Positions 1 through 28,588 of a stretch of DNA of 64,000 nt are shown here, one piece after another. The stretch spans positions 23,560,001 to 23,624,000 of the forward strand of contig CAIIXF020000001.1 of the NCBI GenBank assembly GCA_903813345.2, read 5' to 3'. The notes under the pieces were generated by a model. It was not told where the DNA came from. It saw only the letters and a list, made by a program, of their open reading frames with translations, and did no database searches. The DNA comes from Owenia fusiformis (lineage: Eukaryota). Within the stretch, counting starts at the first letter, position 1. Every line of letters begins with the position of its first letter. The position numbers and the translations under genes were made by a program.

Positions 1-450
1 TTGCAGCATTTTCTAAACACAAGACAAAGTTTATTTCACTACAAGTTTATCACAACTCACTCCTTCCATAAAGTACAGTGAAGTAGAATGAACACTAACC
101 AAGTGAAACTTTTTGACTGTATCAAAGGATTTCAACATACACATGTTTCATTTTAACACATGAATGTTTATGGAGCAGTCTCTCACAAGTAACATTGATC
201 TTGAATTCAATTGTTACTATATTTGACGTTGTATCTAGCTAAATCATGAAATACAATCCAACGATTGTAATACAGTAAATAAATGAGTGAAAGAGCTGCA
301 ATATGATTGACTATGAAATAAGAGTTTAGTATTAGCCAATTGAAAATTGATAACAAAAAGGCTTAGAAAATCTAAGGAGGAGATTCTTTCAAAATCTTTA
401 GCTAATCTCAGGTAGCCATTTAACAGAATCTGTATAATAATGCTGCATAC

Positions 451-3400
451 CTGAATGTATGTTGTGTAGGCGTATACTACCATCTGCACAGCCAGCCTGT
501 AAAAATAACATTGATGGAATAACAAAACAATTATAGGTCACTGAAACTTTAAACTCCTTTAAGGGGATCATTAGTCACTGTATCTCTTTCACCATTCTTG
601 AGTTCGTGATCTGTACATGAGTGTCAATAAAAGTTGTTCATAAAATACTTCAATTTTCATTTCCAAAATCAGTTCTTCGCAGAATCTGTAATTTATAAGC
701 AATAATAAGTAGGAGTGCATTTATTTAGAAATTGATTCACCTATCCAATACTCTTTCTCAACTAACTCAGGTTAAAATGTATGGGACATTTTTTGTATCA
801 ACCAGTCTGTACAGTTCAAACTTCATTTGGGTATGTATATTTTGTTTGACAAACAGCAAAGTATGACTTACCAGAAAGATTGGGAAGGAGAATGGATTGA
901 AGTCCAGACAGAACACTTCAACAGGAGCTTCTATTTCTGGTTTATAACCTTTAGGGGGTGCCTTGCCTCCATATCTCACTCCATGCACCACATAGCCCTA
1001 CAATAGAACAATATGTACAGGGTGACCCAAAAAGAAGGCTGCAATCATTTCGGGTCACTCTGTATATGACAAACAAGAGCAAATATGAATCATAAATGAA
1101 GGAATGGGTTATGTCTTACAACAAGTCTCATTATACATCAAACCCCTTCCTAATTCTTATCACACGTACACGTGAATTTAAAGTAATGAAAACATTAAAG
1201 GATACTTTTCAATGTTTGTGTATATTTTTCTTTCATGACCCGGATAACATCATATCCTTTGATATGAATTATTGTATAATTTATTGTAATATGTTTCATA
1301 AAGAATTAAATATTTTTATAAAGCTTTACTTTGTATATGTATTGTATATACAGTACTTACAGAATCTGTGCCAACATAGAAGTGACTTGGATCAGAGGGC
1401 AAGAGTTGCATTTCATATGCCCTCAGTGATGCTTTAAATGTCCTGCAAAATCATTCAGCATTCATTACTCATAAATACATAACCAATGAAAAAATTGTAC
1501 AAGTATGAGAGATAATTTGAGTCAGTTATTGCTGAGAAGATACGTGTCAAAAAGTGTGAAGTTTTTTGTATGTTTCAGCCACTTACTTGTCAAAATGTGT
1601 GAAGTTTTTTGTATGTTTCAGCCACTTACTTTACAGGGTTTTCTAAATGTACAGCTGAGCTCTTGAGCAGTTTGATTCTTCCTCCAGGTGCCAGCCCCAG
1701 GTCAGACTCAGACCCTGCCTCATCAGCAGTTACAATCTCAGCAACAACCTGAAATATACAAGCAAGCATTAATGAAAGTTCAGTAATATCTGAAGATCTA
1801 ATCTGAACACTCAGGGTGCATTTTCGTATGCCAGCGGACACAATCCACCCACACAGCACTTAATGAGCCTTGTCAGCAGGCATCACGAAAAAGAACAAAA
1901 AGCTCCGCGATGCAAATTACATGCTCACATGTTTTCAACAATAACAGCTCAATGTGAATATTTTTCTTTTTTCTAATTGGCCAGAGTCTTTCTTGTTGAT
2001 AAAACGTTAAAATGGGAACACCCTCCAATCCTAACACTTTAAGCTAGTCTCTAATAGCTCTCAGATTCGCCATGATTTACTGTACAATGATTGACAACTT
2101 AAATACTGAAAGAAGAATTCGAATGATAGTTTTACATACTAGATTGACCAGAATGCTTCCATCAGGTAAGTTGTAATTTTATAATATCTATGGTCTCAAA
2201 GGTCTTATTTTAACAAGAAGTATTAAGCAGGGATGCAATTGTAAGTATTAAATTGATAATGGTGATACATACGTTTGGATCAAGATAACTGCACCAAAGG
2301 TAAAATAACTAAGTAAAGGATCAGTTTTAATGTGCCAATAGCCACCTTGACCATGTAATGACATAAGACTCTATGGTGAGGCAATTATTGTATATTTAGC
2401 CCCTGAGTTTAGAGACTACGTCAACTCACCCATAGATTCAGGACCGCCTGCTCCTCCATACTGGCTAGTTGAAAGGAAAGACCTGACCCCAGTCCATCAC
2501 TGTCACTTGCATGACTGCCTTTTGAGCTGGAATAGCAATCATATAAGTACTTCTAATTATAGCCTACCAAGTGATGCATGAACTAAGTTGGAAGTATATA
2601 GGATCCATTGACAGAGGTAAATCAAATCCACGCTCATCCACAACACCCACTCCTTTTAGTTTCTTCCATATTCAGATTGTACGTGAATTAATGGGTAAAA
2701 ATATAATACAGGAATTTTCAGTTACTGTGCTTACAAAAGAGCTATGTGATCAGTGGTAAATCCATTCAATGAAGGTAAGAACTGATTTACAACAATGATC
2801 ACTTTTGGAACTGTGATTCATTTTCAAATGAGAATTAATTAATCAGTTTATTTTCTCAAGTACAGGTATGTACAATATCATACCATACACAATTACATGT
2901 ACACTTCTTATAATATTTCACAAATCATTGTAAATACCATTATGTGGCACCTAATACTCCCTCTTAGGAGTCATAGCCACTACAACCTGTAAATATGTTA
3001 CATTGATTTTAATTTTAAAAAAATACCTCAATGACAGCACTGTGCCATGTGGCATATTTTACTCAGTTGAATTTGCAGAAGAATTCAAACTCTAAATGTA
3101 CTTACACCTTGTCCTGTGGTGAGATCACAGGCAATATAGATGTCACTGCACTGTTGTGGTTATCATACTGCAATATTCCAGCTGTAAAACAATTATTTAA
3201 AAATTAATACAAGGAATAAACATGCAAAATGTCACCAGTGTCAAATTATCTAAATATCAACTCACATTTTTCACTATTCTTTAATCCCCAAAACCTTAAC
3301 AAAAATATCCTTTATTCTGAACGAGAAGTTATCAGTTATCACAGAGAGAATCAATATTTGAAAAATTTATTGAGATTAGTTTGTACATATATATTTGTAT

Positions 3401-6400
3401 ATATGTATACCTGTACTATATGTTGGATATCTAACAAGCCACTCTTTGTCTGCCAGTGTGATGTGCTTATGTAGGGATGGGTTCTCCCTCAGGTCCCACA
3501 CAACAAGAGAACCATCACTCTAAAAGTGCATTAGAGGTAGAGGTGTAATACTCCACCACATAATGTTGAAATCAGTATTTTGCATGCAAACTGCATTTAT
3601 TTGTCAGTAGTCAAATGAGCTAAAAATAACACCAAGTAATATTCAATTCAAATAGATTGAATTGAAGAGCAATATATTACATACTGTTAGGACATATGAA
3701 ATTACAAGAACTTTAGTCGTGTCAAACTTACCATTCCAGCAAAAGCCAGATGGGCTTTGTTGGGACTAAAACAGCAGCAGGTTGGTTGTGACTCACAGGC
3801 CAGAATTCTGAAACGCAAAGGAAACAATATTTATTGAAAATACAGCTTTTGACAAAGGTCTAACCTGATATTATGCCACTATACAATCTTAATGCTAGTT
3901 CTTATAATATATGTATGTATCTTTCAGATTTAGTCAGTTTGGGTCATTGTATTAAGTTATCATTAGACAATCTTCACTGGTTCGAAAATCCTAGGGGGTT
4001 TACATTTGACAATTATGAGGGGGGAGGTCAAACCCTTTAATCCCCCTAGGTACTGCTAGGTGACATTTTAAAAATTTCGTCTCATATTCCTGGACAGCAG
4101 ATACATATGCAGCATCTTATCAATTCATAATTACAGAATCTTAAATGATAGCCTAGAGGGTAAAATACTTACTTTTGAGGTGCTGATGGTTCATGTATAT
4201 TCCACAAACACACCAGGCCTTTGTTTGATAAAATATCTCCAGGGGAAACCTGAAAGTATGAAATAATGCAGACACATGATCAAACAATATCTATCAACGT
4301 ATTTCAACCAAATTCTCAATATCTTATATCAAAGGATTATATCAAAATCATTTTCATGGAGCAAGAGAAAAATATCACATTGTTCAAAATCAGACAATAT
4401 TTCTGTTGAATCTCTCCTGACAGGTTTAAATGTCATGCCTCTCATTAAAACATAGATAGGATCTAAAATGATAAAGTATGCCAATGCTAGATGTGTAGTA
4501 CTTGCCTGTTTTGGTCGACTATATACAGCAAGGAATAGATTGCTCTGCATAGTTGCAAATTGACTATGTATTACTTGTCTACCTAAAAATTAATAAAACA
4601 AGACTTGACAATACAATGTATACAAATCATATCAAAACGAGATGAAACTATCAAACACATACAAAAAGTGTACTTTTGTTTGATAGATGATCCCCAGGAA
4701 TCCTTTGAAAAATAACCTCCAGGGACAATCAACATCAACACATAATATATGAAAATTCACCAAATTAGTGGATTTATGATTGAAAGTAAATAAATCATTA
4801 TCTACAGTATGTGTGTGCCATTTCATATAGTTATACATTACCTTGTAAAAATGGAGTATTGCCAAGTATGGTGTAGCTGTCACTAAATGGAATGTTGGAT
4901 CTACTTTCTGATGCCTGGAGTTGATGGTCCAATGCAGATTGCTCCTCCAATAGCACACTTATCGCCTAAGAATTCAAAAAACATTGAGGAAAATGCTTAA
5001 ATATTTTTAAGGACATTTTGATCTACAAATATTCTCTTGGGAATGGAATCTATGAATAACATTTAGCCAATCAACAGTTGCATGGCTACGCTGTTTAGCT
5101 CGGTGGTAGAGAACTCAACGGAAAAACGAAAGGCTATGGGTTCAATCCCCACTAGGGTACCGGACTGGGATGGACTTTTTCACACCAGCCCTTAGCACAG
5201 GATTTCATTCTGGTTTTTCATTAACTTACATTTCTCAAGAATATATGCTAAAACTAATCCACTCATTTACAATTTGATTGGAAAGACAATCAGACAAATA
5301 AAGATTTGATGACTTCCACATATTACTCAAAAGACTGTTGACCTTACCTGACCTGCTTTAGCCAGGAATTTACCAAGACTCTGAACATCTACTGGTTTTT
5401 CTTTCTCTTCCTCATTATCTGCTCCCACTTCCCCTTCTGCCCCTACAAGAAAGACAATACACTTTCAATAATACATGTTTAAGTTACCCATCAAATTTGA
5501 ATACTTTGTTCATACATGTATTTGATTACATCAGAATATGAGAATTATTCTAATGATGAGTAATAAGCATGACAAGTAACGACAGGGCATTAACATGCAA
5601 AATGCCACTACCTGCCATTTGTTACAGACACCAAATGGCAACTGCTAGAATCTACATAAAAGTTGGAGACCATAAGAATTAAGGGTCTAACGGTGCACCA
5701 AAACTGCGGTGCTCCGCGGTTCTTGGGCCTCGGTCGGTACGTTCGGTTCGAAAACACCAATGTTCGGTTTTTTAACGGTTCGTTAATTCAGTAAAAAGTG
5801 CCGTTCGCTAAAGTAGAGGAAGATGAATCTCGAAACGAGAGGTGAAGATTTCGGCATTCTAAACGCTCCAAAGTCGTACAAGGCCCACTGTTGGGGTTTA
5901 TTTTGGATTTCCAACGAGATGGTGTTCCTCTCCCGGAAAGAACGATATGCCGGCTTTGCAAAATTGTTATGGTATATGAGAAAGGTACGTGTGAAAAAAC
6001 GGTCAGTTTGAGTTATTTGATTTTTTACATTAAAGTGCGATAAGAACCGAAAACCGAACTGAAACCGAACCGAAACCGAACCGAGGACATAAAAAACGTG
6101 AACCGAACCGAGGAATTATGAAACCGTGGGAGCCCTAATAAGAATATGTTACCACAAGTGATGGTGGCATAATAACCCATGAAAAGATACATCATAACCA
6201 CACTTGTAACATGTAGTATGAAAAAGTCAAAATATGATTCCAATATCTTAATTTTTAATGAAAATAATATATTTATCTAGATCCACACATAAATTGACAT
6301 TTTATTCAACATACCCCCAGAAGATTTTGTTCCCTCCCCAGGATGTTGACTCCACTTGTCTCTGGTGTCAATCTCCTCTGTTTGAATCTCACGATCAACA

Positions 6401-9400
6401 TCATCATCCCCTGTCTGGATGTAAGCCTGCAAACACAAAATAAACTGAGTGAGATTTGAATTTTCTTCCAAGTGATGTTTCTATCTCAAGTATTTTGGCT
6501 AAATATTATATAAATACCGAGACCAGCGGGGTGTTATTCGAAACTAGAAACCCTGCTATTTGGTCTATATTTCTTAAGTAACATAATCTGCTACCCTAAT
6601 TAATATGAAAATCCTCCCATGTAGACATTATTTTTATAAATATAATTTGTTTCACAATATCAAAGTTAACAATAAGTCTTTTCTTTTCCTATTTTTTGTT
6701 ACCATGTACCATTTTTCAAAGATGTGAGTACCGTTGCCATGGTAACTGAATTATACCAAAACCTGGTCAGACCAACAGGCAGATGGAAACGCCATTTCAA
6801 ATCTGTGGTGATCAAGATATGTCACTTATTGGGTGGTGACATGATAAATAATAAAGAAAAGTAGTATAGAAAACATCACAGATGCGTAGCTGGGTGGGGA
6901 TTATCGGAAACCCCCCATGCTGGAATCTTCAAAATCATTAATTTATCCTTTTTAATTTTCTCATTATTTTTGTTAGACATATATTTTTGTAGTAAATGAA
7001 AAATTATGCTTTTTGGCCATTTATTGGCTTTTTGTGTATTCAAGCCCCCTTTAGAAAAATAGGGATCCTGACCCCCCCCTGTTCAAAAGTAATTTCATCT
7101 ACAGACAGAAATAAAAATATTGGTGTTCACCAGACATAGGTGTTCACTAGACAAAGGTATTCACTAGACACAGGTGTTCACATTAGAAAGGTGCTCACTA
7201 GATACAGGTTTTATTGCACTGCAGTCAGTGGATTATGTGCTAAGAATTAATGTTCACCAAACTCGCGTGTTCACTAGACACTGGTGTTTACATTAATAAA
7301 AAGAAGCTCATTAGATACAGGTTTTACTGCACTGCAGTCAGTGGATTATGTGCTGAGTATTGGTGTTTACTAGAAAAAGGTGTTCTTGAGACACAGGTGT
7401 TCATAAGAGAAAAGAGTTCACTAGATACAGGTTTTGCTGCACTGCAATAAGTTGATAATGTACTAAGAATTGGTGTTCACTAGTCACAGGTGTTCACTTG
7501 ATACAGATATTCACTAGAGAGAGTAGTCCATGATATATGAGAATACCATGACAGTGCCTGTGTTCTATATTAGTGAGTAGCCAAAATTAGTTCTAAGACT
7601 TATATAATATAGATAGATGATGCTGACTGTGAACAAAATTAGCTATAGCGAGTTAGTTAACAACAGTCTTAGCTGTGCTTGTATGAAAACCACCGGCTAT
7701 ATTTAGAGAAGTTTTTGCACAATTCTAGCTATAAGATCATCAACTATGACCTTAGGAAGAAACAAAAATCCTTTTATTAATTATACATTGCTCTCTTTAT
7801 ATATTTCGAAAGCATTTGAAGCAGAACTATGGGACAATCTAAAAATGCGAAACTGACTTTCTTTGGAGCTAGCTCTACTCGAACCGGAAGTAAAATCTGC
7901 GCAAACAGAGGTGAAAATAAACCCGGTACTGGCTGCATTTAACTTGTTAACAAAACGCTTTTTCTTAAAGTTAAATATTAACATCTTCCTTATAAGTATT
8001 TTGAACAACACTATTATTTATCACTGATTATATACTTCTTAGTATTCTACTGCACTATATCAGATACCAACATTGTAAACATTTGTAAGACCTCAACGAA
8101 CAAATGGCTGAAATTGAACTTCCAGAAACAAAGGAATATCACCTATTCTTTGGATATGCTACTTCAGATGGAGAAAGAATGAAAAATATTGTGAAGAAGC
8201 TGGAGAAATCTCCATACAACATTAAATGCGCTTACGGTCAGAGGGACTTTATGCCTGGGTGTGACAATATAAATGAAATAGACCGATGCATTTTAAAAAG
8301 TATGAAGACAGTGCTTCTAATCACACCTGCTTTCCTGGAGAGTTGTTGGTGTAACACAGAACTGAGTAAAGCTCATGATCTAAGAATTAGAGGTCTTGCG
8401 AATATGGTGCCTGTCAAATTGGAGAACTGTGAAATACCAGTGTCTATAAATTACATGTCATATTTGGATGCGGTACACATGAACGATGAGGAGCTTGTTA
8501 AGAAGATATGGCAATCACTGAAACAGAACCCAGATGATTTGTCAGGATATTTACGTGAAGCAGTTGCGATAAATGGTTCTCACTTTTCTATTCATGGCAA
8601 ATATAATATGGGGATAACATACAGTTTGAAAGGAATTATCCATAGGAGGTGGGATGCAATTCAGTTTCAACGTGAAGATGAACTCAAAGAAGGTCTTGAA
8701 CAAAGGAAAATAGAAATGTCAGGGGATACACTTCGTGAAATCATGGACAATATTCAGCAATACTATGGCAAACTCAATACGATGTTAGCTACCATTCTAG
8801 TGTTCATATTGATTATTCTAGGATTCTATTCAAATGCACTATTATTTATGCTCATGTTTCTTGGTTACCTATATAAGGCCTACATGTACCATCAACGTAT
8901 TTGTTGCAGGATGTTGTCAAAGCACTCAATATCACTGGGACACAAGCATAAAGTACTTTTAAACATAAACTTTACAGTGGACTCAATAGTACTTAACATC
9001 ATGAAGTATGATCTAAAGCCCTGCCTTGAACATTGGCAACAAAGGATTACACAAAGGGGAAACTTATTGGCAACAAACAAGAATGTCCTCAAAATGATAG
9101 TGTTAAGTATAAATGCTAAACTCTATGGTAAAAAGCATCAAGATGAACCACTGCTTGCATATTTGAATGAAGAATGTTTAGACACGACACAAGTCCACCT
9201 TCATGGGTATATGAATGATCTTATTAATAACCAGCTTGAGAATGCAATCACAAACAGGCACCCTGTCATTCATGGCAAGCAGTGCTTCTGCCAGTATATA
9301 GAGAAGAAGATTCTTCAAAAGAGACATTAAAGTTCAGTTGATAGCCTGACTAGCTTTTTCAAACCTTACCAAGTACATAATAAATCATCAAAATCAAGTG

Positions 9401-12400
9401 AACTTTGACTGATTAAAAGACGGTGGTCTTTGAAATATGGAGATAGTTAAGTGTTTCAAGTTGCTAAATAATGTAAACAAAAGCAATTAAGTGATTTTAG
9501 CTTTTAATATTCTGTAAATTATTAACTGTTCAGATTCTGCCTCAAATACTATTCTCAACAAAACATATACCGAATGGACCGAGACAATCTAGCTACAGTG
9601 GAGACGATAACCCCATTTAACGTGAAGTACGGCAATCGCCATGTTGCACGACAATTGACGTGAAATTATGAAGCATAAGTGCGCATGTCAATAGATAATA
9701 ACGGCAATTGCCGTCATGTCCGTCAAGTGACGTGCAATATTTTGCACGACAATTGACGTGCAAACTATTATCTTGTAAAAGTTTCACATATTATCGGCAG
9801 GACAACACGCAGGCCTGTCAACTGTCCCGCAATTTGCGTATTTGTCACGCATTTGCTGAAGAATTTGAAGTCACGCCAGTTTTTTTTGCGTGACAGAAAA
9901 TGTCACGCAAAATACGCATTTTACCTGGTAATTGTCAAGCAAAAATATTTCTGTAGAAATTTGTTCGAAATATGTTGACGATACGGTAAAAATACGAACG
10001 CCGGGAAAAACCGAACGCAATTTGTTCGGATTTGTCACGCGAATCCCGTATGTGTCACGCATGTTCATTGGAAATTTTTGGTGGTCCCAAGTTGACAGCC
10101 CTGCAACAGGGAGTAATAAACTGGGAAACTAGTGGGAAAATCATGATCTGCATCGTATGTAATAGTTAAAATTATAAACATTTGCTATTTTCCGGGTTGC
10201 GTTTTGAACTAACAACTATTATGATGTGCTTACGTCAATGTTTACAAGAAATATTTATTCAACAGCAAACCGGAAGTAAACAAATGACGTGAAGAAAACG
10301 AATAAATTCTGATTTAATGAGGATATGAATTTAAATTGTTTATAATTCATTTAAGGTAATCATTAGATCATTGTAAAGAAGGTTTAAAAACTAAATCAAG
10401 TCAGGAAAAAAACGAAAAAATCAACAACACGCTGCGGTCAGGAAAACACTTCCGGTCAAAACGAAGAGGGAAAGTAGACCCCATTTTAGTGATTTCCAGC
10501 GGTCTTTTCTCGGAATTGGGGCTCACGTTGTGTTCAGAGATTAAAAAACTATTGGGTCAGTACCAATTTCGTCGTATAACCTGTCGAAAAGACGATATCT
10601 AGACAATTGAATGAGTGTTAGTAATTCCAATATGGCGTTTTTCTGGGATTCGTGAGAGGTAACTTTGATTAGTTCTAGCGCAAAATTCCCACATAGGATC
10701 GCAAATTCCTACATACAAGTGCTAGATTAGATAAAATACTTGAAGAAAATGCAATGAAAAGCGTTCCATCGATCGATTTAGACTTTCCAAGAATGCAAGT
10801 TCGGTGGTGACTTCATTGGTTCGTAACATTTACAGAAAATTCACAAGATTGAACGGCATTTTCTCCACAATTTTGGAATGAAATTCTTCCCTGGGATTTA
10901 ATATATCATTAATGTTTACCAAAGTATACGTACTATAAAATAAATATTACTTAGATTGTATATATATTAAACACTGGGTCTTCTAATCAACCTGGTGTTT
11001 CAAATTATGAATTACAATGGACATTATGCTTATTGGCGTGATTTACGTCAATTGACGTGAAAAATGGCAATCTCCGTGTTACACGTTAAATGGGGTTATC
11101 GTCTCCACTGAGCTATAAGGGGACATATTTTCCATGTATTTATGTATGACAACAGAATGTTAGCCTAGATGTTACTTGGGGTGAATTAACAGACCTACTA
11201 TTAAAATTTACGATTGATATCATAAGTCTAATGTTCACTAATAATGACATTATGAAATCCATTATTAAAACGTTGTTTTTGTGAATTTTTAACTCTGTAT
11301 GCTTATGAAAGTGGGTTCAAGATTACTAATCTGATTGTCCTACCTTAATCAGTTAAATGAAACTAATATCCCACTCACCTGTGTGGTATTAGACCTGCCA
11401 AAACTTCTCATGTAAAGCTCATATTCCTTTACAGGGGGCATATCAAACATCTCAAAACCAGCTACATCTAGATCAATCATGGCACTTAATTCCTCGCTCC
11501 GCTTTTTGGTTTTATTTGCTACTTTTTGGCTAATTTGTCTCTGCTTGGCAGAAACAAAGTTGATAAATGTCCGACTGTGACCCGTTGTAGGTCTTGAGAT
11601 TTTTCGTTCATCAGAAACATCAGTCTGGAAAATGAAAATATGGAAAATATTCACCAATTAATTTTATTTTTTTATCTTTTCACTTACCAGTATTTTGAAA
11701 ATGAGGTGCAAAACTGTTATATTTTTACATTATTTCACCAGAATATATCCTATACTTGTTGTTTGGCACAAAACTGGGAATTATATGCAAAAGTGAACTT
11801 ACTGAATCAGACCAGTTACTTTTCCGAGATTCTGACATCAATCTGTCATTTTCTTCATTCATGGCTTTCATGATCTCGTCCATCTCTGAATTTGACTAAA
11901 AGTAATAAAAATGAAATAATTACATCTCCTACAAGAAAATGAATATACTTCCTAACAACTTATTTATCATTTTTTGAATCTAGTTCATTATGTAATATGA
12001 AGATCAGCCAGGTATTTACTGAATATCATTGGACTCAAACTGAAAATTTCCTATTCAGAATCGCCAGAATCACTCTTGGTGATGTATATCGCGATGTATC
12101 TATTAATCGCAACACTAGAAGATACAGATAAATATAGTAAAGTTAAAATGCACATAATGTTCAAAGAAGGTGAATTTTAGGGGCATAAGCAGGATCTAAA
12201 ATTTGACGAGGCAAAAATTAGTAGGTGAGGCAAATTTGGACTGAATGAGGTTATTAACTTTATCTGGATTTAATTTCTTCCGTTTTAGTTGTAAAAAAAT
12301 CTGAAATTTTTTTTTCTGAAAAATGTTGGGTGAGGCTACGCCCGCACATACATGTTTGTTGTTATTGGTTTTCATGATAATGTTTAGAACCACAGTTCTT

Positions 12401-15400
12401 TAGTTTCTACACATAAATATAGATAAAGTATCAAGTTATAATTTCTCTTAAGTAAAAGCAAGTGAGACTATGCTGGCATGGTGATTTTTTATCAGTAGAA
12501 TATACTACATGGTGAGCAAAAAAACATTCTACAGGTGAAACTCCATATGAAGAAATGTTAATAATATCAGTAGAAGGTGTCCACTAAGAAGATGTCTAAT
12601 TAAAGCATTGTTTGCATTACATCTCTGGTTAGTTAGTGAGGAAATATAATCATTAGTAAGGATTAACAAGGTAGACATAGGTAATTACACAAAAATGTGG
12701 TGTTTAGGTTAATAAATGCAAAGTGATTAAGAACGCAAGAAACATATAAACACTTGACATAAACAGATAAAAGCATCTAATTTATAATTACAGCTGCGCT
12801 CGCATCCCATCCAAATGACTTATAGTAGCCTGGGGATTTAGTTTCTGAGCTCCGAGACAAAGTCACACCACTACCCTAATAATATAAAGATGCAACTGAC
12901 AAGCAGAAGATTCAAGTAAAATAAAGCACATTTTCTGCTTCAACCTGTAGATTTGCAATACAAGCTATATATGTACATGTATAGACCACACATTCTAGAT
13001 TTCTGCATGTAACAAATGTAAATTATGCATAAAAGATCTACACTATTCTGTGAAGGAAATGTAAATTCTACATAGTATTCTGCAAAAGTTATTATTGATG
13101 TAATCTGATTGGATACTTCTGGTAGCGGTGAAAATAATGTATTTTAAAAAGAACTCTTAAATTAAATGAATTGATTGTGAATTGTGCATTTTGATTTTGA
13201 GGACACTATTATCATGCTTCAATTTTCGATAAATCAAGAGATAATCCGAATGCTTCTGTGAAAATTCTGAAGAAGTCTAATTCTCTACATCTCTAATGCT
13301 CTACATCTTTTCAAAAACTATACTTCTGCACAGTTGAAAAATAGAATTCTATAATGTGTGTTAAACACTTGTCTTGAAAAAAAGGTAAAATCCTTCATAT
13401 ACTTTATGAAGTATAGTATATTATTATACTAGTAATAGATATTATTTGCTACATGTACTTGCAAGCAAACTACACTACACAAATTTTTAAAATGCCACAC
13501 AGAAATGAATTTATTTGTCCATGAAATATTAAACTTCTATCAAATATTTCTACAAGATTAACATTTTATGGCTATGTCCAAAATACAGAACAGCACAATT
13601 CTTTCTGAACTGAAATTATGAAAAAAATAATGAGTGATTTTGAACAAAGCAGTGACCAAACCTTTTTCTTGTTTCCTCTAGCAGACTAGCAAAATTCACA
13701 AGAGATTAAAAAGCAAGTATAACCAATACAGCCAAGGAGCTTGATTCCACATAAATATGCAATGGTACATATACATGCAAGATCCCCTAAGATGGTTAGA
13801 TATACAATAAATACAGATTTACATACAAAATGAATGCATGTTTTTGAAATAGCAAAGACAACCCAGTCCTGAATAGAAGCTGAAAAATCTGGATATTTGC
13901 ATTTTGTTTTATGCCTCAGTTATATTTGTTATGGCAACGTTATGATCTAATATTTCAATCGCCATTAGCAATTCGATAGACGCAGTCAAATTTTGGTCAA
14001 ATACTTTCACATATATTACAGCAGCCATATGGCATATGTTTTGATTTTTTTTGGTCAATACAGTCTTGGAAATGATGACACATGGTCACTGTAGGGCATT
14101 CATAGGTATTTCTCAATTTGGGGGAACTGCAGTTGCCATACAGTTGTCATAGAGGAAATGTAACGAACTGAGGCATTAAATTCACACATGAACACTATGT
14201 AGGTATTCTATGCAGGATCAAATATTTTCTCTCTGAATTATATCATATATAGTTTTAGATGTCTTCATTACCTTTTGTTCATTATCATCATCATCCTCAA
14301 AATCATCCTCATAATCCTGCAATAAAAGAATCAGATTTATTTTGCAATTCAAAAATAGACATAAACATCTTGTTTCATACCCTATTACAAGTACAATTCA
14401 TTCAACAGGTTAAAACGTTTAGTTTCTTTTGACATGAACTTGGATTTGGACAAAGAGTGTACATAAAGCAAGATATCAAAATGAATTCAGCTATATTTGC
14501 CACGATAATATTATATATGATATAAAAAAACACACCTCAAAGTCATCATCGTAATTATATTCATCTTCGTTAGCATCATTGCTGCCCATATTGACCACTG
14601 TGTCTGACTGTACTGGAGTAGGAGGTTCATAGTGCTCAATCTCAGCCTACAAATTCAAGCAACAGTGTTATCCTAAATCTTCCTCTTCGCATGTCATTTC
14701 TAAGCACAAAATTTATTTTAAAGCGTGAACGATTTTGGAAGAAATATAATAAAAGTAAATATGGAAACTAAAATGCAGAGAAATATACAGAATTTCAATA
14801 TTTAAAATGACATACATGAACAATTTGTATGATTTAAAAATAGATAACTCATGTAACTGAAGTTATACAATAAAACATGAAACTTACATGCTTTTTACAT
14901 AAACGGAATTCAGTATGCACATATAGTACACAAATAACTGTTTAGGCAGAGAATATGTTTCAACAACATATACTTATATTAGAGGTGTCAAGTATTAACC
15001 GGTTAACCGGTTAACCGCCGATAATGCCTTGACCGGTCTGAGTTTTTATGGGCGGTTAGTTGACCGTGTATAATTCTGTTATTTCCCGCGCTTATTTTGC
15101 ATGCTAATCCGTTTGGTTTTATGGTGTCAGTTTCACGTAAGCTACTCATACATGTCATAAGTCCAATAACTCCTTACAAACATCCAATCAGCAACTTTAA
15201 TCCCTGCCACATTGCTTTCCCGCGCTTACTTTGCATTTTTTGTTTGTTTTTCAAGCGTCAGTTTCATGTGAGCTACTCATACATGTGATAGGTCCGATAA
15301 TTCCTTACAAACATCCAATCAGCAACTTTAATCCCTGCCACATTGCTTTCCCGCGCTTACTTACATAGAATAGCGTAAAGCTTGACGAACGTAAAAAATA

Positions 15401-18400
15401 AACGCCGATATATCTTTTTTCCAATTTTTTTCAACTTTCAAGATCGAAGATGAAGATTCCATTTGAAATTATCAGTTCAAATTTCCCGCCGGTTAACCGA
15501 CTTTAACCGGTAAAAACCCCCGGTTCGGTTAATGCTCAAGCAGTTAATTGACACCACTAACTTATATAGTCTACTTATTAAAAGTGTCGTTCACCAATGA
15601 GACTTAATGGCTAGCTAAAGCTACTGCCTGTAGATGTCTGATAGGTTGAACAATGCTCCATATATAATAATTAAATCATGGTACAGGATAACTCATTATG
15701 TGCCTTTTGATCTTGAATCCTGATTGGTTTGGTTTAAAGATAAGTAGAAAACATAAAAAAGAGTTGTGGTGCAAAAAGTACATCATAAAAGTAAAACAAA
15801 ATGACTTAAAAATTAGAAATAATATGCAAGAAATCTATTAGGAGTGTACAGTTAATCCTGTATACCTCTCAATGTGAACACTTTTTGGACACAAAACGCT
15901 TTTGGCAAGTTTCAGTGGCATTCAGAGTAGACAGGTTTTAGTGTTTTACTGTACATAACAAATCAAGAATATCTTATAATATACAATATAATGTACTATG
16001 ACAAAGAAAGACAGAACATCACACAAAATGGTGTGCAAAGCAAAACATACCAGGCCCGTAGCCAGGATTTTCCAAGGGGGGGTTCAGTTTTCAAATATTT
16101 CCAGGGGGGTTCACATTTGACAATTTTGGCCCAAATATGGCTAAAATCATTTGAGAAGTGCTCAAAATGATGAAAAACTGCCCCCCCTGGCTACGGGCCT
16201 GCATACACAATGATATAACATTTTTTCAGGCACAATAAATTTTGGCTTAATTTTCCTCATCTGCTGAAGTTCTGCTTTTTAATCTCATGGTATTATAATG
16301 CTAGAAAGTGTAGATTGTAGGCAGTGGTATTTAAATGGTTTAAACATTGTGAGCTTATCCAAGGTAACTTATAGAAATACTTCACATTTATAGAATTCAT
16401 GTTTAGATATATACACACTCAGGTTACTGTATCTAGATAGGAAATTATGGCAGATTATTGAAGATCAGTGAAATGCAACTTAATTAAACCATAGCCCCAA
16501 AAATAAATAAAATGAAATACAACAAGAAAATAATTAACAGATTAACAGAGAGATACCACAGTTAGATCCTTAACTACTAAAAACGATACCACTCCCTGAC
16601 AAATGATCAATAATTAACAAGTGCATGAACTTAAAACAATATACAAGACAACATACAGCATCTTCCGAGTGTTTAGAAGCAGCTTTAAATGTTACATCAG
16701 ATTTCCTTGATCCCTAGAAAAAGCAAACAAAATGAATGAAATTTGAATAGATTGTTTTATTGAAGAGGCTGTTGAATGTGACATGATGCACTATATATAC
16801 AGTAGTACTATATGTGCACTTTTAAATGTGATCTTGCTTACTGTATCTTCTCTTGTTCATGTGAACTTGTTTATGGTAAGTTATGTCTCTTGCAAATGTG
16901 ACATTATTTACTGTCTGCATGTTGTAAATATGGCATTGTTTACTGTATGCATATTGTAAATGTGACATTGTTTACTGATTGCATATTGTAAATGTGGCAT
17001 TGTTTACTGTATGCATATTGTAAATGTGACATTGTTTACTGTCTGCATATTGTAAATGTGACATTGTTTACTGTCTGCATATTGTAAATGTGACATTGTT
17101 TACTGATTGCATATTGTAAATGTGGCATTGTTTACTGTATGCATATTGTAAATGTGACATTGTTTACTGTATGCATATTGTAAATGTGACATTGTTTACT
17201 GTCTGCATATTGTAAATGTGACATTGTTTACTGTATGCATATTGTAAATGTGACATTGTTTACTGTCTGCATATTGTAAATGTGACATTGTTTACTGATT
17301 GCATATTGTAAATGTGACATTGTTTACTGATTGCATATTGTAAATGTGGCATTGTTTACTGTATGCATATTGTAAATGTGACATTGTTTACTGATTGCAT
17401 ATTGTAAATGTGACATTGTTTACTGTCTGCATGTTGTAAATATGGCATTGTTTACTGTCTGCATATTGTAAATGTGACATTGTTTACTGATTGCATATTG
17501 TAAATGTGGCATTGTTTACTGTATGCATATTGTAAATGTGGCATTGTTTACTGATTACATATTGTAAATGTGGCATTGTTTACTGTCTGCAGATTGTAAA
17601 TGTAGCATTGTTTACTGTATGCATATTGTAAATGTGGTATTGTTTACTGTATGCATATTGTAAATGTGACATTGTTTACTGATTGCATATTGTAAATGTG
17701 ACATTGTTTACTGATTGCATATTGTAAATGTGGAATTGTTTACTGTATGCATATTGTAAATGTGGTATTGTTTACTGTATGCATATTGTAAATGTGACAT
17801 TGTTTACTGATTGCATATTGTAAATGTGACATTGTTTACTGATTGCATATTGTAAATGTGACATTGTTTACTGTCTGCATATTGTAAATGTGGCATAGTT
17901 TACTGTATGCATATTGTAAATGTGGCATTGTTTAATGTATGCATATTGTAAATGTGACATTGTTTACTGTCTGCATATTGTAAATAAGGCATTGTTTACT
18001 GTATGCATATTGTAAATGTGACATTGTTTACTGTATGTCTCTGTGTATGTGACATTGTTTATTGTTAGTACCTCAGTGTAAATACTCGCATCTGATTGGT
18101 CAATTAGCGGTCAACATTTTTGCCTGTACCCCACCTGTGCATCATGGGATATCATATTATTGACCGCGTATGTTACTGTACTACACTTGTGAATTATGGG
18201 GAATATGACGTCATAATGTCTACAGAAAAAACATGGTAGACGGACATTTTGTAAACGTTGATGAAAGTGATATTGTGACTTTACTAGACGACAAGTATAG
18301 CAAAAATACAAATAGAAACGTAAAATTAACATTAATTTACTAGTAAGTATGCAGTGATGTGCCGGAAACAGAGAGTTAAGCTACCACTGTCTTCAGATTT

Positions 18401-21400
18401 TCTTAAAAAATCATTGCTGGCGTGGTTCGGAGGAAAGATTGTAAAATGAAGCCATGATTGATGATTGTCATCTATATGTGTATTATTAGTTTCTTCTGAC
18501 TAACAAAACAATTGTAGACCTCTCCATTCGGTCAACCGTTAAAATCATATACCTCGACTGTAAACCTTGAAACTACTGTTGACCTAGACCTTCGGTCTCT
18601 GTCAACAGTAGTGTCTCGGTTTACAGTCTTGGTATACAATTTTGCCGGTTGACCTCTGGAGAGGTCAACAATTGTATACTGTATGTCTCTGTGTATGTGA
18701 CATTGGTTACTGTATGTCTCTGTGTATGTGACATTGTTTACTGTATGTCTCTGTGTATATGACATTGTTTACTGTATGTCTCTGTGTATGTGACATCGTT
18801 TACTGTATGTCCCTGTGTATGTGACATTGTTTACTGTGTGTCTATTGTAAATGTGATATATTTCCTTTTATTCCATACTTAGTAATGTTCTAGGTAAATA
18901 ACATGCGTTAATATAATTGATATGTCAAGTGAGCGGGTGATATATATCATCAGCTCATCAGACTTATGATGTCACAAATTCAGGGATTAGATACTGAGCT
19001 AGGGGATTTGGCTATTGTTCCTCATAATCTAATAAGTATAGAATAAATCAGTTATTTAATGCTCGATTTTTGATACAGGGTATATCCCTCGGTAAATACA
19101 ATATATCAACCCTCTGTCCCTACGGCCCCTCGGGTAGATATATTGTATTTCCCTCAGTATACCCTGTATCAAACACCTCCCATTAAATAACCTCTATGTA
19201 TTCTCAGTTTGTGAATGTGTTTAGTATTTTAAATCTAAATAGTAAATTCCCTCCAAAGCACCTCTAGAAGTATAAAGCAGAAATCTACAATGCCAGAGGA
19301 ATATTTTCAAAATCATAGAAAAATACCTATAAGAACGCTCTAACACGTCAGGTTTTAGAATATTCTGAATAGGAATTAAAAAGCTTTCATATGTTTTCAT
19401 AATTTATCCAAAGTTTAACGCTATGGGAAACAATTCCCTAATAGCCACACACAGTGCTTCACATATATCAAAAGATTGCAGAAATCGTAGGGAAAAAGTT
19501 GATCTTCAAAGGAAACAAGTGGGCAATAATAAAGTACTGCCCATATTTTACCAAAATGTTTATGATAAATAATTGCGAATTATAAATCCAGTTTATACTG
19601 CACAGTTTTTATGTGCATATGAAATGAGTCAGACTTCCTTTTTGAAAATCTTCAGTTTCTGTTTATCCTTCGACATTTACATTGATTTCATTCTTATTTC
19701 ATTCTTATTGGAATTCTGCACAGGCGCTTAAAACGTCGATTACAGTAGTTTAATTTGGGAATACATATATGCAAGTGATGTCAAAATTCCTGAATCCTTT
19801 ATAAGCAAAATAAGAGTGAGAGAATTTACTCTTCATTACAAATATTTACCTCATCTTTCCTTGACTTCTTGTCCCTATCTCTGTGCTTCCCTGACTTTTC
19901 AGAGACTTCCTGGTCCCCTATATTCTGACTCTGTAACGTATAACATGGGCAATGTATATCTTTTTGAATAAATGTTCCATTTGGCCATGCATGTGAATAC
20001 ACAGTGTTTTACAAGCAATCATAGTGATCTCAACATGTATTTTTCCAACAGACTAGTACAAAATCCTAATACTACCTGTCTTGGCCCAAATATTTAATGT
20101 TCTTTTAATATTTTTGATATGTCCTCTAATTTATTGCCATTGTTATAGATATTGTCTTAGATCTGTAAAAATTCAAAAATATCTATAAGTGGACACTGCA
20201 AGTTCCAAGTCAATCTGATCCTCATTTCTGATATACTATATTGTAAAATGGAAAGAGGGCATCAACATGCAAAATGTCACCACCTGCCATTAGTTACAGA
20301 CACTGAACACCAAACCCCAACCACTGAACACCAGCAATAGGATGCTAAACACTGTCCACAAAAAAGTTGGAGTGTGGTGATGACATAACAAAAATGTAAC
20401 AAATTACAGATGCTTGGAGCAAAAAGTGGAGGCCATATGTCATGTCCCCATGAAATAAAACTTCATCTTACAATACAAGTCCCTCCTTAAAGAAATACCA
20501 ACAATACAAACAATGCAACAATGAACAGTTTTAAACAACAAACTTAATGCTTAAGGTATGACTTATCTATTGCAATACCGGTACTCTCACTGTTAATGTG
20601 ATTTTGCCTTTGGATTTCTGTTTTCTAATACCAGAATGAAATGATGTCTTTTTACTAGAAACTTTACTCGCTTTTCCAAAGGGTGAACTATCTAAGGATT
20701 TGTTACGAGGTCCAGCAGGCAATGCCCTAGTTAAGGAAGACTGTCTAGATGGAGTAGATTTTGTTCTCTGGTCCTTCTGACCGAGACTTCCTGCTTTATC
20801 TTTTATCTTTATGGGCTAAAAATATCATTGGCTACCTTTACTTGTATCCTGGCATAAAAGACAGTTAGCGCAAAAGCTGAATCCATACACCACCCACACA
20901 TAAAAAGTAACATTTTTATCTCATACTTTGGAAATGAGAAATAAAAACACAAAAATCTCATCATCAATATATACTACATAAATGAGGAAAATAATTTCTA
21001 TGTATATCAACCTCTTCTCTCTTCTTCCTCTCCTTTCTTTCTGCTCTTCGTCTCTCTCTATCGCCATCATCTTCTTCATCTCTGTGCTTCCTATGCTTTC
21101 TTTCATCCTGAAACAACATGACATCACTATGACAACAGACAAAATGTAAGCAACTGATTGCAATTACAAAATGGTAACAATTACAGATGCCAAATACAAA
21201 TATGCTAAATGCTGGTTGCAAAAACATCAGTCGCTTTAACAATATGTCTCCAAAATGACATAAAATTGCAAAAAGTATTTCTCACCAATTCCTCAGAATA
21301 AATAACTAAATATTAAGGTGTATATGAGTATTGTGGCTTACATCATTATCTCTGTCTCTCCTATGTTTCCTCTCTTTATCCTTGTCATCCTCTCCATCTT

Positions 21401-27984: not shown

Positions 27985-28588
27985 TCTTAAGCAACGGATT
28001 TGTATGGTTACGCCCCTTAATAATGGGAGGCGACGCAAAATCCAATCAAAGTGGAGAAATTTGTAAATTCGCGGTCGCCATGATTGAGACGAAAAATATT
28101 TCTTCTCTGCGCGTGCGCACAGGTGCTTTTCTGTAGTCGTAAATAGGTCAACTTTGTTTACCTCAAGAGTTATAAACATCCTAAATGAACAAATTGCACT
28201 AAATTCATAAAATTGAATGTTTTGTTCTATGTTGAAAGTATCAAAAATATATACTAAGCGTTTGATTTAAGTCATTTGACGACATTGAAATAGGTCAACC
28301 AGGTGGACGGTTCCATGTTTCACCTAAGAAATGGATGGCACCATAAAGAAAACGAGCAAATGAACTCAAATGATTATAGAAGCTTTTACAGTCTAATGTA
28401 TTAATACTTAGATAATTATTTGAATCATTTACATGCCATTTTTGTCTGTGACTATAATTATTGAGGATGGTATCATAGCGTAATTTAACTTATCACCCCT
28501 GTGCAAAATCGAGGTAATCCAAAATAGTGGGAACAATTTTTTATCAAGTTCCAAACAGCTCTGGAATTTGGTTGTTTTCTTCGTTAGT
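27985..28588. promoter_or_regulatory. Putative bidirectional promoter shared by WDR60 and ESYT
   Basis: Divergent ATGs about 600 bp apart; local CpG enrichment; NRF1-like TGCGCGTGCGCA at 28108-28119; CGCCAT motif at about 28076. Confidence 0.65.

Follow-up and report, generated by a model that had tools for sequence, protein, structure and literature searches.

A nested, intronless TIR gene of Owenia fusiformis with a probable divergent TMEM268-like membrane tail

TIR domains are common to the innate immunity of animals, plants and bacteria, and the partner to which a TIR is fused usually shows what throws the switch. The MAL (TIRAP) and TRAM (TICAM2) adaptors are attached to membranes by a lipid-binding motif or by myristoylation rather than by an integral hairpin, and are not known to have a DUF4481-like module. 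In the HyTRR proteins of Hydra the TIR comes after the membrane span, as it does in Toll receptors. The HyTRR proteins have been described as transmembrane proteins that contain a TIR and act together with separate LRR proteins (PMC6321704); TIR-STING fusions are reported from several lophotrochozoan lineages (PMC8662601), and many uncharacterized cytosolic TIR-DC proteins from bivalves (PMC10279657). Human TMEM268 (UniProt Q5VZI3) is described as having adjacent transmembrane segments (aa 104-126 and 130-152) inside a DUF4481 domain that spans aa 38-328, and as binding integrin tails through aa 104-342 (PMC6748091); in the mouse, its knockout is reported to impair anti-bacterial responses by way of CD11b (PMC11169502). 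Mammalian TMEM268 thus has a part in integrin stability and in anti-bacterial defense that awaits an explanation (PMC6748091, PMC11169502).

The DNA analyzed here, the window, is a 64,000-nt stretch of the O. fusiformis genome (contig CAIIXF020000001.1), and all coordinates are positions within it. The reading that we favor, with slightly better than even confidence, is that it holds a nested gene for a TLR/MAL-like TIR followed by a divergent DUF4481-like hairpin tail, the two together making a membrane-tethered adaptor. The only ATG-to-stop ORF of at least 80 aa that overlaps positions 7500-10000 is 8104..9330 on the plus strand (CDS P0001, 408 aa and a stop). Its start context is acaaATGG, an in-frame stop lies five codons upstream, and the enclosing stop-to-stop frame (8089..9330) has 413 codons; after mononucleotide shuffling of the 10 kb around it (200 replicates), the longest open frame has a mean of 107 codons and a maximum of 187.

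Evidence for expression comes from raw RNA-seq reads aligned to the locus. Contig record 2 of run X1 (1692 nt) is collinear with 7929-9590, with no gaps and two letters different, which supports a single exon; the unspliced transcript covers at least 7929..9590 (+), made up of a 5'UTR of at least 175 nt, the CDS and a 3'UTR of at least 260 nt. In the stranded runs X17, X18 and X19, first mates over 8005-9338 fall on the minus strand (depth 5.3-14.3) and next to none on the plus strand, which is to say that there is plus-sense, unspliced transcription across the entire ORF in all three. These reads lie on the strand opposite to those of the host gene, and the adjoining intron bins are silent; the read bin at 7338-8004 is close to zero, and the transcript has a defined 5' boundary. 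At the other end, AATAAA at 9379..9384 (+), 49 nt past the stop, is a candidate polyadenylation signal, with ATTAAA following at 9412; the X1 contig extends past the former to 9590, and the 3' end of the transcript is uncertain because a repeat begins at 9596. The ORF is a genuine protein-coding gene, expressed and without introns: the intact 408-aa single-exon frame of the preliminary description, which had left transcription as a question, is open throughout and is transcribed in the sense direction.

A gene with these features might instead be a young copy adrift, transcribed from a permissive intronic site, serving no maintained function and decaying toward a pseudogene. Such a history would suit an intronless, nested gene flanked by repeats, with a tandem array at 7122-7520 and an inverted-repeat element at 9596-11110, for which sequence searches retrieve neither orthologue nor paralogue, and which has no paralogue within the 64-kb window. 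Within the ORF, moreover, a single difference from the RNA runs is well supported, and it changes an amino acid (K133E). It would not suit 408 codons held open in an AT-rich genome against a chance maximum of 187, nor a transcript whose TIR motifs are intact, whose first AUG is in good context and whose 5' boundary is defined. The locus is found, moreover, in the runs of four studies (at least half of the words of the stretch are present in 16 of the 19 runs listed, none of the 16 being on record as RNA), and the X1 contig of the TIR transcript has a depth of 104.5 to the host-gene contig's 114.5, contig depth being a poor measure of expression. Taken together, these considerations make a decaying copy highly unlikely.

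The protein would consist of three parts: a TIR domain (aa 15-137), a helical linker, and a tail (aa 145-408) built around a hairpin (aa 227-257). The first of these (8146..8514, +) passes the Pfam cutoffs of two families, PF13676 TIR_2 over aa 15-130 (E 5.4e-13, 49.9 bits against a cutoff of 28) and PF01582 TIR over aa 26-137 (E 1.7e-8, 34.9 bits against 21.3). The conserved box 1 and box 2 motifs of TIR domains, together with the alpha-C motif (CWCNTEL), align to the corresponding residues of TLR15/TLR2 and TLR1. Thus the box 2 motif RDFMPG (aa 47-52; 8242..8259, +), which we take to be the BB loop, aligns to RDFKPG of 7ylf_A and to RNFVPG of TLR1, and the alpha-C glutamate E86 of WCNTEL (codon 8359..8361, +) aligns to the Glu of WCQYEL/WCHYEL in TLR TIRs. 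An N-terminal TIR at about aa 11-140 with its WCxxE glutamate in place, in a protein devoid of LRR, Ig, death and ARM domains and of a signal peptide, is what had been proposed from the letters of the DNA, and the analysis bears it out: WCNTE is at the expected place; none of the LRR, Ig, death, ARM and STING families is among the five Pfam families listed for the whole protein at E<=10; and the first 40 residues contain no hydrophobic segment (highest Kyte-Doolittle 19-residue mean, -0.17).

The best PDB matches of the TIR are TLR15/TLR2 (E 3.3e-12), TLR1 (7e-11), TLR6 (9.2e-11) and MAL/TIRAP (1.2e-7); oyster TIR-STING 6wt6 (2.6e-6, aa 10-111), Hydra HyTRR (4w8g/4w8h; 3.1e-6, aa 10-138) and the CRISPR-associated Cat1 (0.0023) are also matched, and TRAM weakly (0.1-0.16). 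None of the 42 PDB sequences matched at E<=1 is by name a SARM1 or plant TIR. On these alignments the TIR is nearest to the scaffold-type TIRs of the TLRs and MAL, and not to those of SARM1 or plants. The layout of the protein is not that of a Toll-like receptor, since its TIR is N-terminal, its hydrophobic block comes after the TIR, and no LRR family appears at E<=10; it is not that of TIR-STING, since no STING family appears at E<=10 and the 6wt6 match is confined to the TIR.

This bears on whether the TIR might be an enzymatic effector, with clustering of the membrane module giving rise to a TIR that uses E86, the putative counterpart of the catalytic glutamate, to cleave NAD+ or to produce a nucleotide signal, in the manner of SARM1, of plant and bacterial TIRs and, reportedly, of oyster TIR-STING. 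E86 does lie within a WCxxE alpha-C motif, and TIR-STING and Cat1 are among the matched structures; however, the TIRs of TLR1/2/6/15 and MAL, which are scaffold-type, are much closer than any others, and SARM1 and plant TIRs are missing by name from the 42 PDB matches. The same glutamate is kept in the non-enzymatic TIRs of TLRs, and E86 is for that reason not diagnostic of catalysis. A preprint lists oyster TIR-STING among the NADases and shows that a bacterial NADase TIR can adopt a MAL/MyD88-like scaffold with its BB loop intact (10.1101/2022.05.07.491051), so that a TLR-like TIR is compatible with catalysis. We nevertheless judge an enzymatic TIR to be unlikely, though a serious alternative.

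Each of the described TIR systems is like this protein in part. MAL and TRAM would have in common with it a membrane-held cytosolic TIR without an ectodomain, a likeness that is a functional analogy only. Oyster TIR-STING (6wt6/6wt7), also lophotrochozoan, likewise couples an N-terminal TIR to another signaling module, but the protein described here has no STING domain and its partner module is predicted to be membrane-embedded. HyTRR proteins resemble it as membrane-bound TIR proteins without LRRs and differ in order: here the TIR comes first and the DUF4481-like module after it.

The tail (aa 145-408; 8536..9327, +) is a probable divergent DUF4481/TMEM268-like module, judged from Atlas features and structure, with a Pfam match below threshold. 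It has an NG motif at aa 157 and a 31-residue hydrophobic block at aa 227-257 (8782..8874, +), a candidate membrane hairpin or single span, over which the Kyte-Doolittle 19-residue mean exceeds 1.6 (centers 229-247), as it does nowhere else in the protein. GFYSN divides the block, leaving two arms, of 15 and 13 residues. Next come a juxtamembrane di-cysteine, C267-C268 (8902..8907, +), in a basic flank (K258, R264, R269, K272), the motif YDLKPC at aa 302-307 (9007..9024, +), which the preliminary description likened to the FxLxPC of TMEM268, and a C-terminal motif at aa 369-400, Y..L....L......RH......CFCQYIE (9208..9303, +), with RH at aa 385 and CFCQYIE at aa 394, which hmmscan aligns to DUF4481. 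Every one of the motifs listed earlier (NG, the hydrophobic block, YDLKPC, RH and CFCQYIE) is where it had been placed. A single-sequence AlphaFold2 model of the whole protein is poor (mean pLDDT 43.1, pTM 0.25, 316 of the 408 residues below 50), and within it aa ~211-260 are modeled as helical with a block-mean pLDDT of 76-92.

Human TMEM268 (PMC6748091) has a comparable succession of a soluble stretch, adjacent hydrophobic segments and a C-terminal region of ~150 aa, closed by the motif that also closes the DUF4481 profile. It differs in having no TIR and in having two 23-residue segments, 49 residues in all, against the 31-residue block here; integrin binding, moreover, is known for the mammalian protein alone, and the Pfam score of the present tail is below the cutoff. 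DUF4481 (PF14800) never passes its gathering cutoff (best 14.8 bits against 25, E 0.018). It is the sole match for aa 258-408 and 280-408 and the top match for aa 230-408 (E 0.018-0.047), and is unreported in the Pfam profile search for the whole protein and for aa 145-408, 180-408, 300-408 and 340-408; three of eight motif-bearing queries match it, compared with none of four motif-less queries and neither of two control ORFs. All three matches are sub-threshold and set aa 369-400 onto positions 262-293 of the 293-position profile, in end-to-end register; the alignment covers the 32 residues shown and a second stretch. DUF2393 also gives weak matches over the hydrophobic block (E 0.05-0.9), which we attribute to hydrophobic-segment noise and reject as an identity for the block.

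By Atlas features, the three clusters closest to the tail are all DUF4481 (scores 0.79, 0.78 and 0.76, all below the 0.9 under which a score is a lead only, and in a range that shuffled proteins attain a third of the time). They share 187, 183 and 179 of 256 features with the tail, 170 being typical of true family members. The structural comparison in the Atlas aligns aa 153-408 with a TMEM268 cluster at a TM score of 0.58 by query and 0.48 by row, over 216 residues that lie to either side of the membrane block, both structures being predicted models and the query having a pTM of 0.44.

From such material one could also argue that the tail is unrelated to DUF4481: a lineage-specific anchor and some other helical region, with a C-terminal motif that has converged and the similarity that transmembrane helices generically show. 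The Pfam match stays below cutoff and is limited to ~32 residues, and the full tail has none; the tail scores of the Atlas are within reach of shuffled proteins; an exhaustive phmmer search yields no TMEM268-like protein at E<=0.001; and the DUF2393 matches show how readily the block draws weak similarities. Chance and convergence would, however, have to bring partly overlapping lines of evidence together on one family out of 24,736, to put the HMM match into exact end-to-end register, to lift the shared features (179-187) above the number typical of true members, to extend the structural alignment across both sides of the membrane block, and to place the whole protein closest to a cluster that has DUF4481 on 13% of its members. 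We find this rather doubtful, and homology of the tail to DUF4481 likely. The TMEM268/DUF4481 assignment of the preliminary description thus stands in its direction, which profile register and Atlas both indicate, and falls short on significance, the Pfam score being 14.8 bits where 25 are called for; judged by the threshold of Pfam alone, the lack of a significant profile match is one of the outcomes that the description had named as refuting.

Relatives of the whole protein are pointed to by the Atlas. The nearest cluster comprises 84 mollusc proteins (score 0.94, 211 of 256 features shared), with TIR_2 on 99% of its members and DUF4481 on 13%; a second mollusc TIR cluster, of 54 members, likewise scores 0.94, and the cluster of the two whose representative has 527 aa is aligned structurally over aa 152-406 (TM 0.59). 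These mollusc proteins have an N-terminal TIR and then a tail resembling the present one in predicted fold and in features; they differ in length (representatives of 487 and 527 aa as against 408), and their sequences are too divergent for retrieval. Word-index searches with the whole protein, at E<=0.001 and at E<=10 (3259 candidates each), and with aa 145-408 at E<=10 (780 candidates) recover the query alone, as does exhaustive phmmer with aa 145-408 against 1,835,955,588 representatives at E<=0.001. A metagenome scan gives 45 pattern-stretch matches, none of them confirmed. The protein probably belongs to an unnamed, mostly molluscan family of TIR proteins with a DUF4481-like tail, its membership in the mollusc clusters being drawn entirely from Atlas leads. 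The architecture had been put forward as uncharacterized, and no paper on TIR with DUF4481 appears in the searchable literature, a scope that does not extend to the principal survey of TIR proteins in bivalves (Gerdol et al. 2017); it is not unique, in that the 84-member mollusc cluster appears alike.

How might such a protein work? In the adaptor reading that we favor, the hairpin would enter the membrane from the cytosolic side, leaving the TIR and the C-terminal part both in the cytosol. The layout fits this topology, with no N-terminal hydrophobic segment, a basic C-terminal flank to the block and a di-cysteine; C267-C268 may be palmitoylated and may lie on the cytosolic side. The hydrophobic block could instead cross the membrane just once, and the tail would then lie outside the cytosol. 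By analogy with the human protein, the TMEM268-like part would anchor the molecule at the membrane and bind a partner there, while the TIR, by means of its BB loop, would join or nucleate TIR-TIR scaffolds that include TLRs or MyD88-like adaptors. The role would then be that of a membrane-resident sorting adaptor, with a hairpin in place of the lipid anchors of MAL and TRAM; topology, adaptor role and partner are each something that we infer. The other suggestions of the preliminary description, a tail that acts as sensor or oligomerization module, perhaps with metal bound by a Cys/His cluster, and an NADase TIR, are conjecture.

A combination of TIR and TMEM268-like module would provide a first functional handle on DUF4481, a family hardly named in the searchable literature, and would add a defined member to what is described as a large and functionally uncharacterized set of invertebrate TIR proteins (PMC10279657). 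A broader idea treats DUF4481/TMEM268 as an ancient membrane module of innate immunity that captures the cytoplasmic tails of receptors, of the integrin type or another, or senses a membrane cue, and that in molluscs has been wired directly to a TIR. We think this quite improbable. Were it true, the prediction would be that vertebrate TMEM268 cooperates with a TIR pathway while remaining a separate protein, and hairpin-anchored TIR signaling proteins would be a new class. If, on the other hand, the homology fails, the protein is one more lineage-specific membrane-anchored TIR protein, of modest interest.

The host gene is WDR60 (DYNC2I1), the gene for a dynein-2 intermediate chain. Upstream of the host intron, the minus-strand exon 11379..11624 matches aa 465-530 of human WDR60 (6rlb_C, E 6.1e-12), has the donor CACAG/GTGAGT and is spliced at the minus-strand GT..AG joint 11624/11803; further downstream, exon 872..997 (-) matches aa 883-926 of human WDR60 (E 0.0068) and has GT..AG joints on both sides. 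These two exons are collinear on WDR60, which places the TIR ORF antisense between WDR60 exons, much as the preliminary description had it in placing the ORF antisense inside a WDR60 intron. The exact bounds of that intron are not fixed, because splice phases hint at an extra small exon. Across the TIR ORF from exon 11379..11624 lies the host exon 5348..5442 (-), with a joint at 4964/5347, an open frame and a polypyrimidine-TAG acceptor at 5442; its high end is approximate, and its phase does not suit a direct join to 11379. Either that high end is uncertain or a further exon intervenes, and from the splice phases a small extra host exon may lie between 11379 and the 5442 side. None of the 15 read joints listed, out of 56, spans the host intron itself.

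Elsewhere in the window, an ORF at 28589-29041 has no PDB match at E<=1, and the near-identical stretch 28580-29032 has no Pfam family.

An expressed gene at 8104-9330 (+) encodes a 408-amino acid protein with a TIR domain of the TLR/MAL type and a hydrophobic anchor. Its ORF is the only one starting with ATG and of at least 80 amino acids to overlap 7500-10000 (standard code), and the stop-to-stop frame comprises 413 codons. The G+C content of the window is ~34-36%, so that long open frames should rarely arise by chance: when the 10 kb around the ORF was shuffled 200 times by mononucleotide and read in six frames, the longest open frame had 107 codons on average and 187 at most. The intact ORF of the preliminary description, which was made from sequence alone, is thus real, and all of the motifs listed there are in place: RDFMPG at amino acid 47, WCNTE with its glutamate at 86 (E86), NG at 157, the hydrophobic block at 227-257, YDLKPC at 302, RH at 385 and CFCQYIE at 394. 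A tblastn search with the protein found no second copy of the gene within the window (next-best match, E = 1.3).

None of the 16 sequencing runs in which the stretch occurs is recorded as RNA, so three raw stranded RNA-seq runs carrying the same species label (X17, X18 and X19) and one contig set (X1) were mapped on window positions 1-20000. First mates of spliced host-gene reads fall on the plus strand; over 8005-9338 they fall on the minus strand (depths of 8.5 and 7.4 in X17, 5.3 and 6.7 in X18, 9.8 and 14.3 in X19, with only 0-0.05 on the plus strand). This opposition establishes that the RNA over the ORF is plus-sense, the same sense as the ORF, in all three runs. X1 is taken as RNA because it contains spliced WDR60 contigs and its depth is zero in several intron bins; its 1692-nt contig is collinear with 7929-9590 without a gap, so that the gene is a single exon, as had been proposed, and its 5'UTR measures 175 nt or more. 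The near-empty bin directly upstream (7338-8004; depths of 0, 0 and 0.93) defines the 5' boundary of the transcript. By our own reading of the sequence the 5'UTR contains no upstream ATG; the start-codon context is acaaATGG. Some 400-800 nt before the transcript begins, 7122-7520 is a tandem array whose periods of 17, 34 and 110 nt are nested (the 110-nt unit is present in 3.4 copies, with 74% matches), and the RNA runs are silent there.

At the other end, AATAAA lies 49 nt 3' of the stop codon, and the X1 contig runs past it up to a repeat that begins at 9596, directly after the final base of the assembled transcript. Inverted repeats of 69 nt (9596-9664 and 11042-11110), 86% complementary and separated by 1377 nt, frame this element (9596-11110), which resembles a non-autonomous DNA transposon. 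Over it RNA depth is high on both strands and a contig depth of 552.7 suggests many copies, so that the true 3' end of the gene is obscured. The sole well-supported difference within the ORF among those listed is at 8500, where the window has A and all covering reads of the three RNA runs (12/12, 5/5 and 15/15), as well as the X1 contig, have G. The change (K133E, at the TIR domain's end) reflects either a difference between alleles or strains or a mistake in the assembly of the window; it may also be RNA editing, which RNA alone does not distinguish from these.

The gene lies antisense inside that for WDR60 (DYNC2I1, a dynein-2 intermediate chain), between exons, as the preliminary description had it. 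Read joints (CT..AC, the minus-strand GT..AG) define a multi-exon minus-strand gene flanking the ORF on both sides, and minus-strand exons at 11379-11624 (human amino acids 465-530, E = 6.1e-12) and 872-997 (883-926, E = 0.0068) match human WDR60 collinearly. No joint spanning the ORF-bearing intron is found among the 15 of 56 read joints listed. The host donor at 11379 is canonical (CACAG/GTGAGT) and the best host acceptor, at 5442, is out of phase with it, so that an additional small host exon may lie between the two; the RNA-seq yields no minus-sense reads over 8005-9338, and thus no host exon overlaps the ORF. Elsewhere in WDR60, 14272-14646 (-) lies between two supported splice joints with no frame open across its full 375 nt; another small intron, or alternative splice sites, probably lies within it, with joints among the 41 outside the listing. 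Segments 5588-5628 and 16051-16181, where hundreds of reads run out into loose ends that do not match and X1 depth spikes to as much as 7386, are high-copy expressed repeats within WDR60 introns.

The N-terminal TIR domain is recognized by two Pfam families, TIR_2 (amino acids 15-130; E = 5.4e-13, 49.9 bits, cutoff 28) and TIR (26-137; E = 1.7e-8, 34.9 bits, cutoff 21.3). The three further families matched by the whole protein at E<=10 are noise and, in keeping with the original claim, LRR, Ig, death and ARM families are absent from these matches, as is STING. Comparison with all PDB chains gave 42 distinct sequences at E<=1, the significant matches all being confined to amino acids 5-138: TLR15/TLR2 TIR (E = 3.3e-12), TLR1 (7e-11), TLR6 (9.2e-11), MAL/TIRAP (1.2e-7), the oyster TIR-STING fusion (2.6e-6), Hydra Toll-receptor-related 2 (3.1e-6), MyD88 (4e-4) and Cat1 (0.0023). 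By these sequence comparisons the domain is classed as an animal TLR/adaptor-type TIR, because its closest matches are TLRs and MAL, none of the 42 sequences is a chain named SARM1 or plant TIR, and box 1, the box 2 RDFMPG loop and the WCxxEL helix line up with TLR residues. The main functional rival is that this TIR cleaves NAD+. E86 leaves room for this rival, although, as first noted, many scaffold TIRs keep the same residue, and its equivalent is also retained in non-enzymatic TLR TIRs. The match to oyster TIR-STING leaves room for it too, since 10.1101/2022.05.07.491051 counts that protein among NADase TIRs, as does the description there of a bacterial NADase TIR able to adopt a scaffold-like arrangement.

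The tail (amino acids 145-408) had been likened to TMEM268, whose Pfam family is DUF4481 (PF14800). Neither the whole protein nor amino acids 145-408 matches DUF4481 even at E<=10. Three shorter queries do: 258-408 (E = 0.027, 14.3 bits), 230-408 (E = 0.047, 13.5 bits) and 280-408 (E = 0.018, 14.8 bits), each aligning amino acids 369-400, exactly the C-terminal motif singled out earlier, with positions 262-293 of 293, the extreme end of the profile. These are 3 of the 8 queries containing that motif, all overlapping, so that the matches are not mutually independent; DUF4481 is absent for the whole protein, 145-408, 180-408, 300-408 and 340-408, as well as for all four queries without the motif and both control ORFs of the window. 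The best score, 14.8 bits, falls short of the 25-bit gathering cutoff: the protein is not formally a member of DUF4481, and the expected significant profile match did not materialize.

The Atlas, a resource of protein clusters compared by features and predicted structure, points the same way. The three top feature matches of the tail are all DUF4481 clusters (scores of 0.79, 0.78 and 0.76, sharing 187, 183 and 179 of 256 features), scores below 0.9 being leads only by the tool's own rating. By structure, with the Atlas's own query model (pTM 0.44), the tail aligns with a 527-amino acid mollusc TIR cluster (TM 0.59, amino acids 152-406) and, over 216 residues (amino acids 153-408), with a TMEM268 cluster at a TM of 0.58 by query (0.48 by row). 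The whole protein is closest to a cluster of 84 mainly molluscan "hypothetical proteins" (0.94, 211/256 features), carrying TIR_2 on 99%, TIR on 93% and DUF4481 on 13% of members; as a lead, this suggests that within a similar-looking TIR family some of the less divergent proteins are recognized by Pfam itself as carrying DUF4481. An exhaustive phmmer search of 1.84 billion representatives returned nothing but the tail that served as query at E<=0.001, word-index searches with the tail and the whole protein returned no relatives at E<=10, and a single-sequence AF2 model of the protein has a mean pLDDT of 43. All leads agree in direction, and sequence and modeling are weakly but consistently suggestive of a DUF4481/TMEM268 likeness; homology is probable, at a score below the Pfam cutoff.

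The only hydrophobic region of the protein, amino acids 227-257, has arms of 15 and 13 residues around GFYSN and falls short of two full spans in length. The preliminary description was right that there is no signal peptide: the N-terminus contains no hydrophobic segment fit for one, and the first 226 residues, including the TIR, should be cytosolic. The block is preceded by a non-basic flank and followed by a basic one (K258, R264, R269 and K272, with a di-cysteine, C267 and C268), which should also be cytosolic by the positive-inside rule, under which basic flanks are cytosolic. These features fit best with a hairpin that would enter and leave the membrane from the cytosol, where the two soluble parts would then lie; alternatively, the block may cross the membrane once and place the tail in the lumen. 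Human TMEM268 has two adjacent transmembrane segments at amino acids 104-126 and 130-152, inside DUF4481 (38-328) (PMC6748091); the tail has a comparable order of parts, with ~80 residues before its hydrophobic block and ~150 after.

TIR domains signal by self-association, assembling homotypically into open-ended oligomers, and scaffold assemblies (MAL, MyD88) are distinct from enzyme assemblies (SARM1, plant TIRs), as set out in 10.1101/2022.05.07.491051. The protein could be a membrane-resident TIR adaptor: its TMEM268-like module would keep it at a particular membrane and bind a partner there, and its TIR would recruit, or be recruited by, TLR or MyD88-type TIRs. In this proposed way of working it would come closest to membrane-targeted sorting adaptors.

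The protein differs from TLRs in lacking LRRs and in placing its TIR first, from TIR-STING in lacking a STING domain, and from DUF4481 proteins in scoring below the Pfam threshold, so that it is not a certified member. It resembles the LRR-less membrane TIR proteins of Hydra (PMC6321704), and we rate it as a membrane-tethered TIR-domain protein, an already known kind. Nor is the ORF a one-off, since the 84-member cluster places similar proteins in public databases. The searched literature, Gerdol et al. 2017 lying outside it, yielded neither TMEM268 (transmembrane protein 268) paired with a TIR nor a functional description of a TIR + DUF4481-like architecture, and scarcely mentions DUF4481; the architecture may already be catalogued as a numbered family in the primary classification of Gerdol et al. 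2017. The original observation thus holds and its interpretation is borne out in part: the ORF is transcribed, and the DUF4481 match falls short of significance on the Pfam threshold, with all leads agreeing in direction; the finding matters more if that link is confirmed and less if it is not.

Other features of the window include a 186-codon open frame at 28484-29044 (+). Lys-rich at its start, it contains an internal Met as well as a hydrophobic segment and could be another gene's first coding exon; 28580-29032 matches no Pfam family at E<=10, and 28589-29041 no PDB chain at E<=1. The low-complexity block at 54000-55300 is richer in G+C (0.435) and strongly skewed, with several frames open on both strands; its ORFs (125-260 amino acids) are built of repeated short peptide units, and the block most probably represents an array of simple repeats, not genes. 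A single-exon ORF at 50040-51392 (-) encodes a 450-amino acid rhodopsin-family GPCR (7tm_1, 2.3e-22; Srw-like, 4.4e-13) with a long N-terminus rich in Ser, Thr and Asn. The uninterrupted 1363-amino acid frame at 30610-34701 (-) specifies the polyprotein of a Ty3/gypsy-type LTR retrotransposon and looks intact, with reverse transcriptase (RVT_1, 5.8e-25), RNase H (RT_RNaseH_2, 1.8e-32) and integrase (rve, 9.7e-10) domains.
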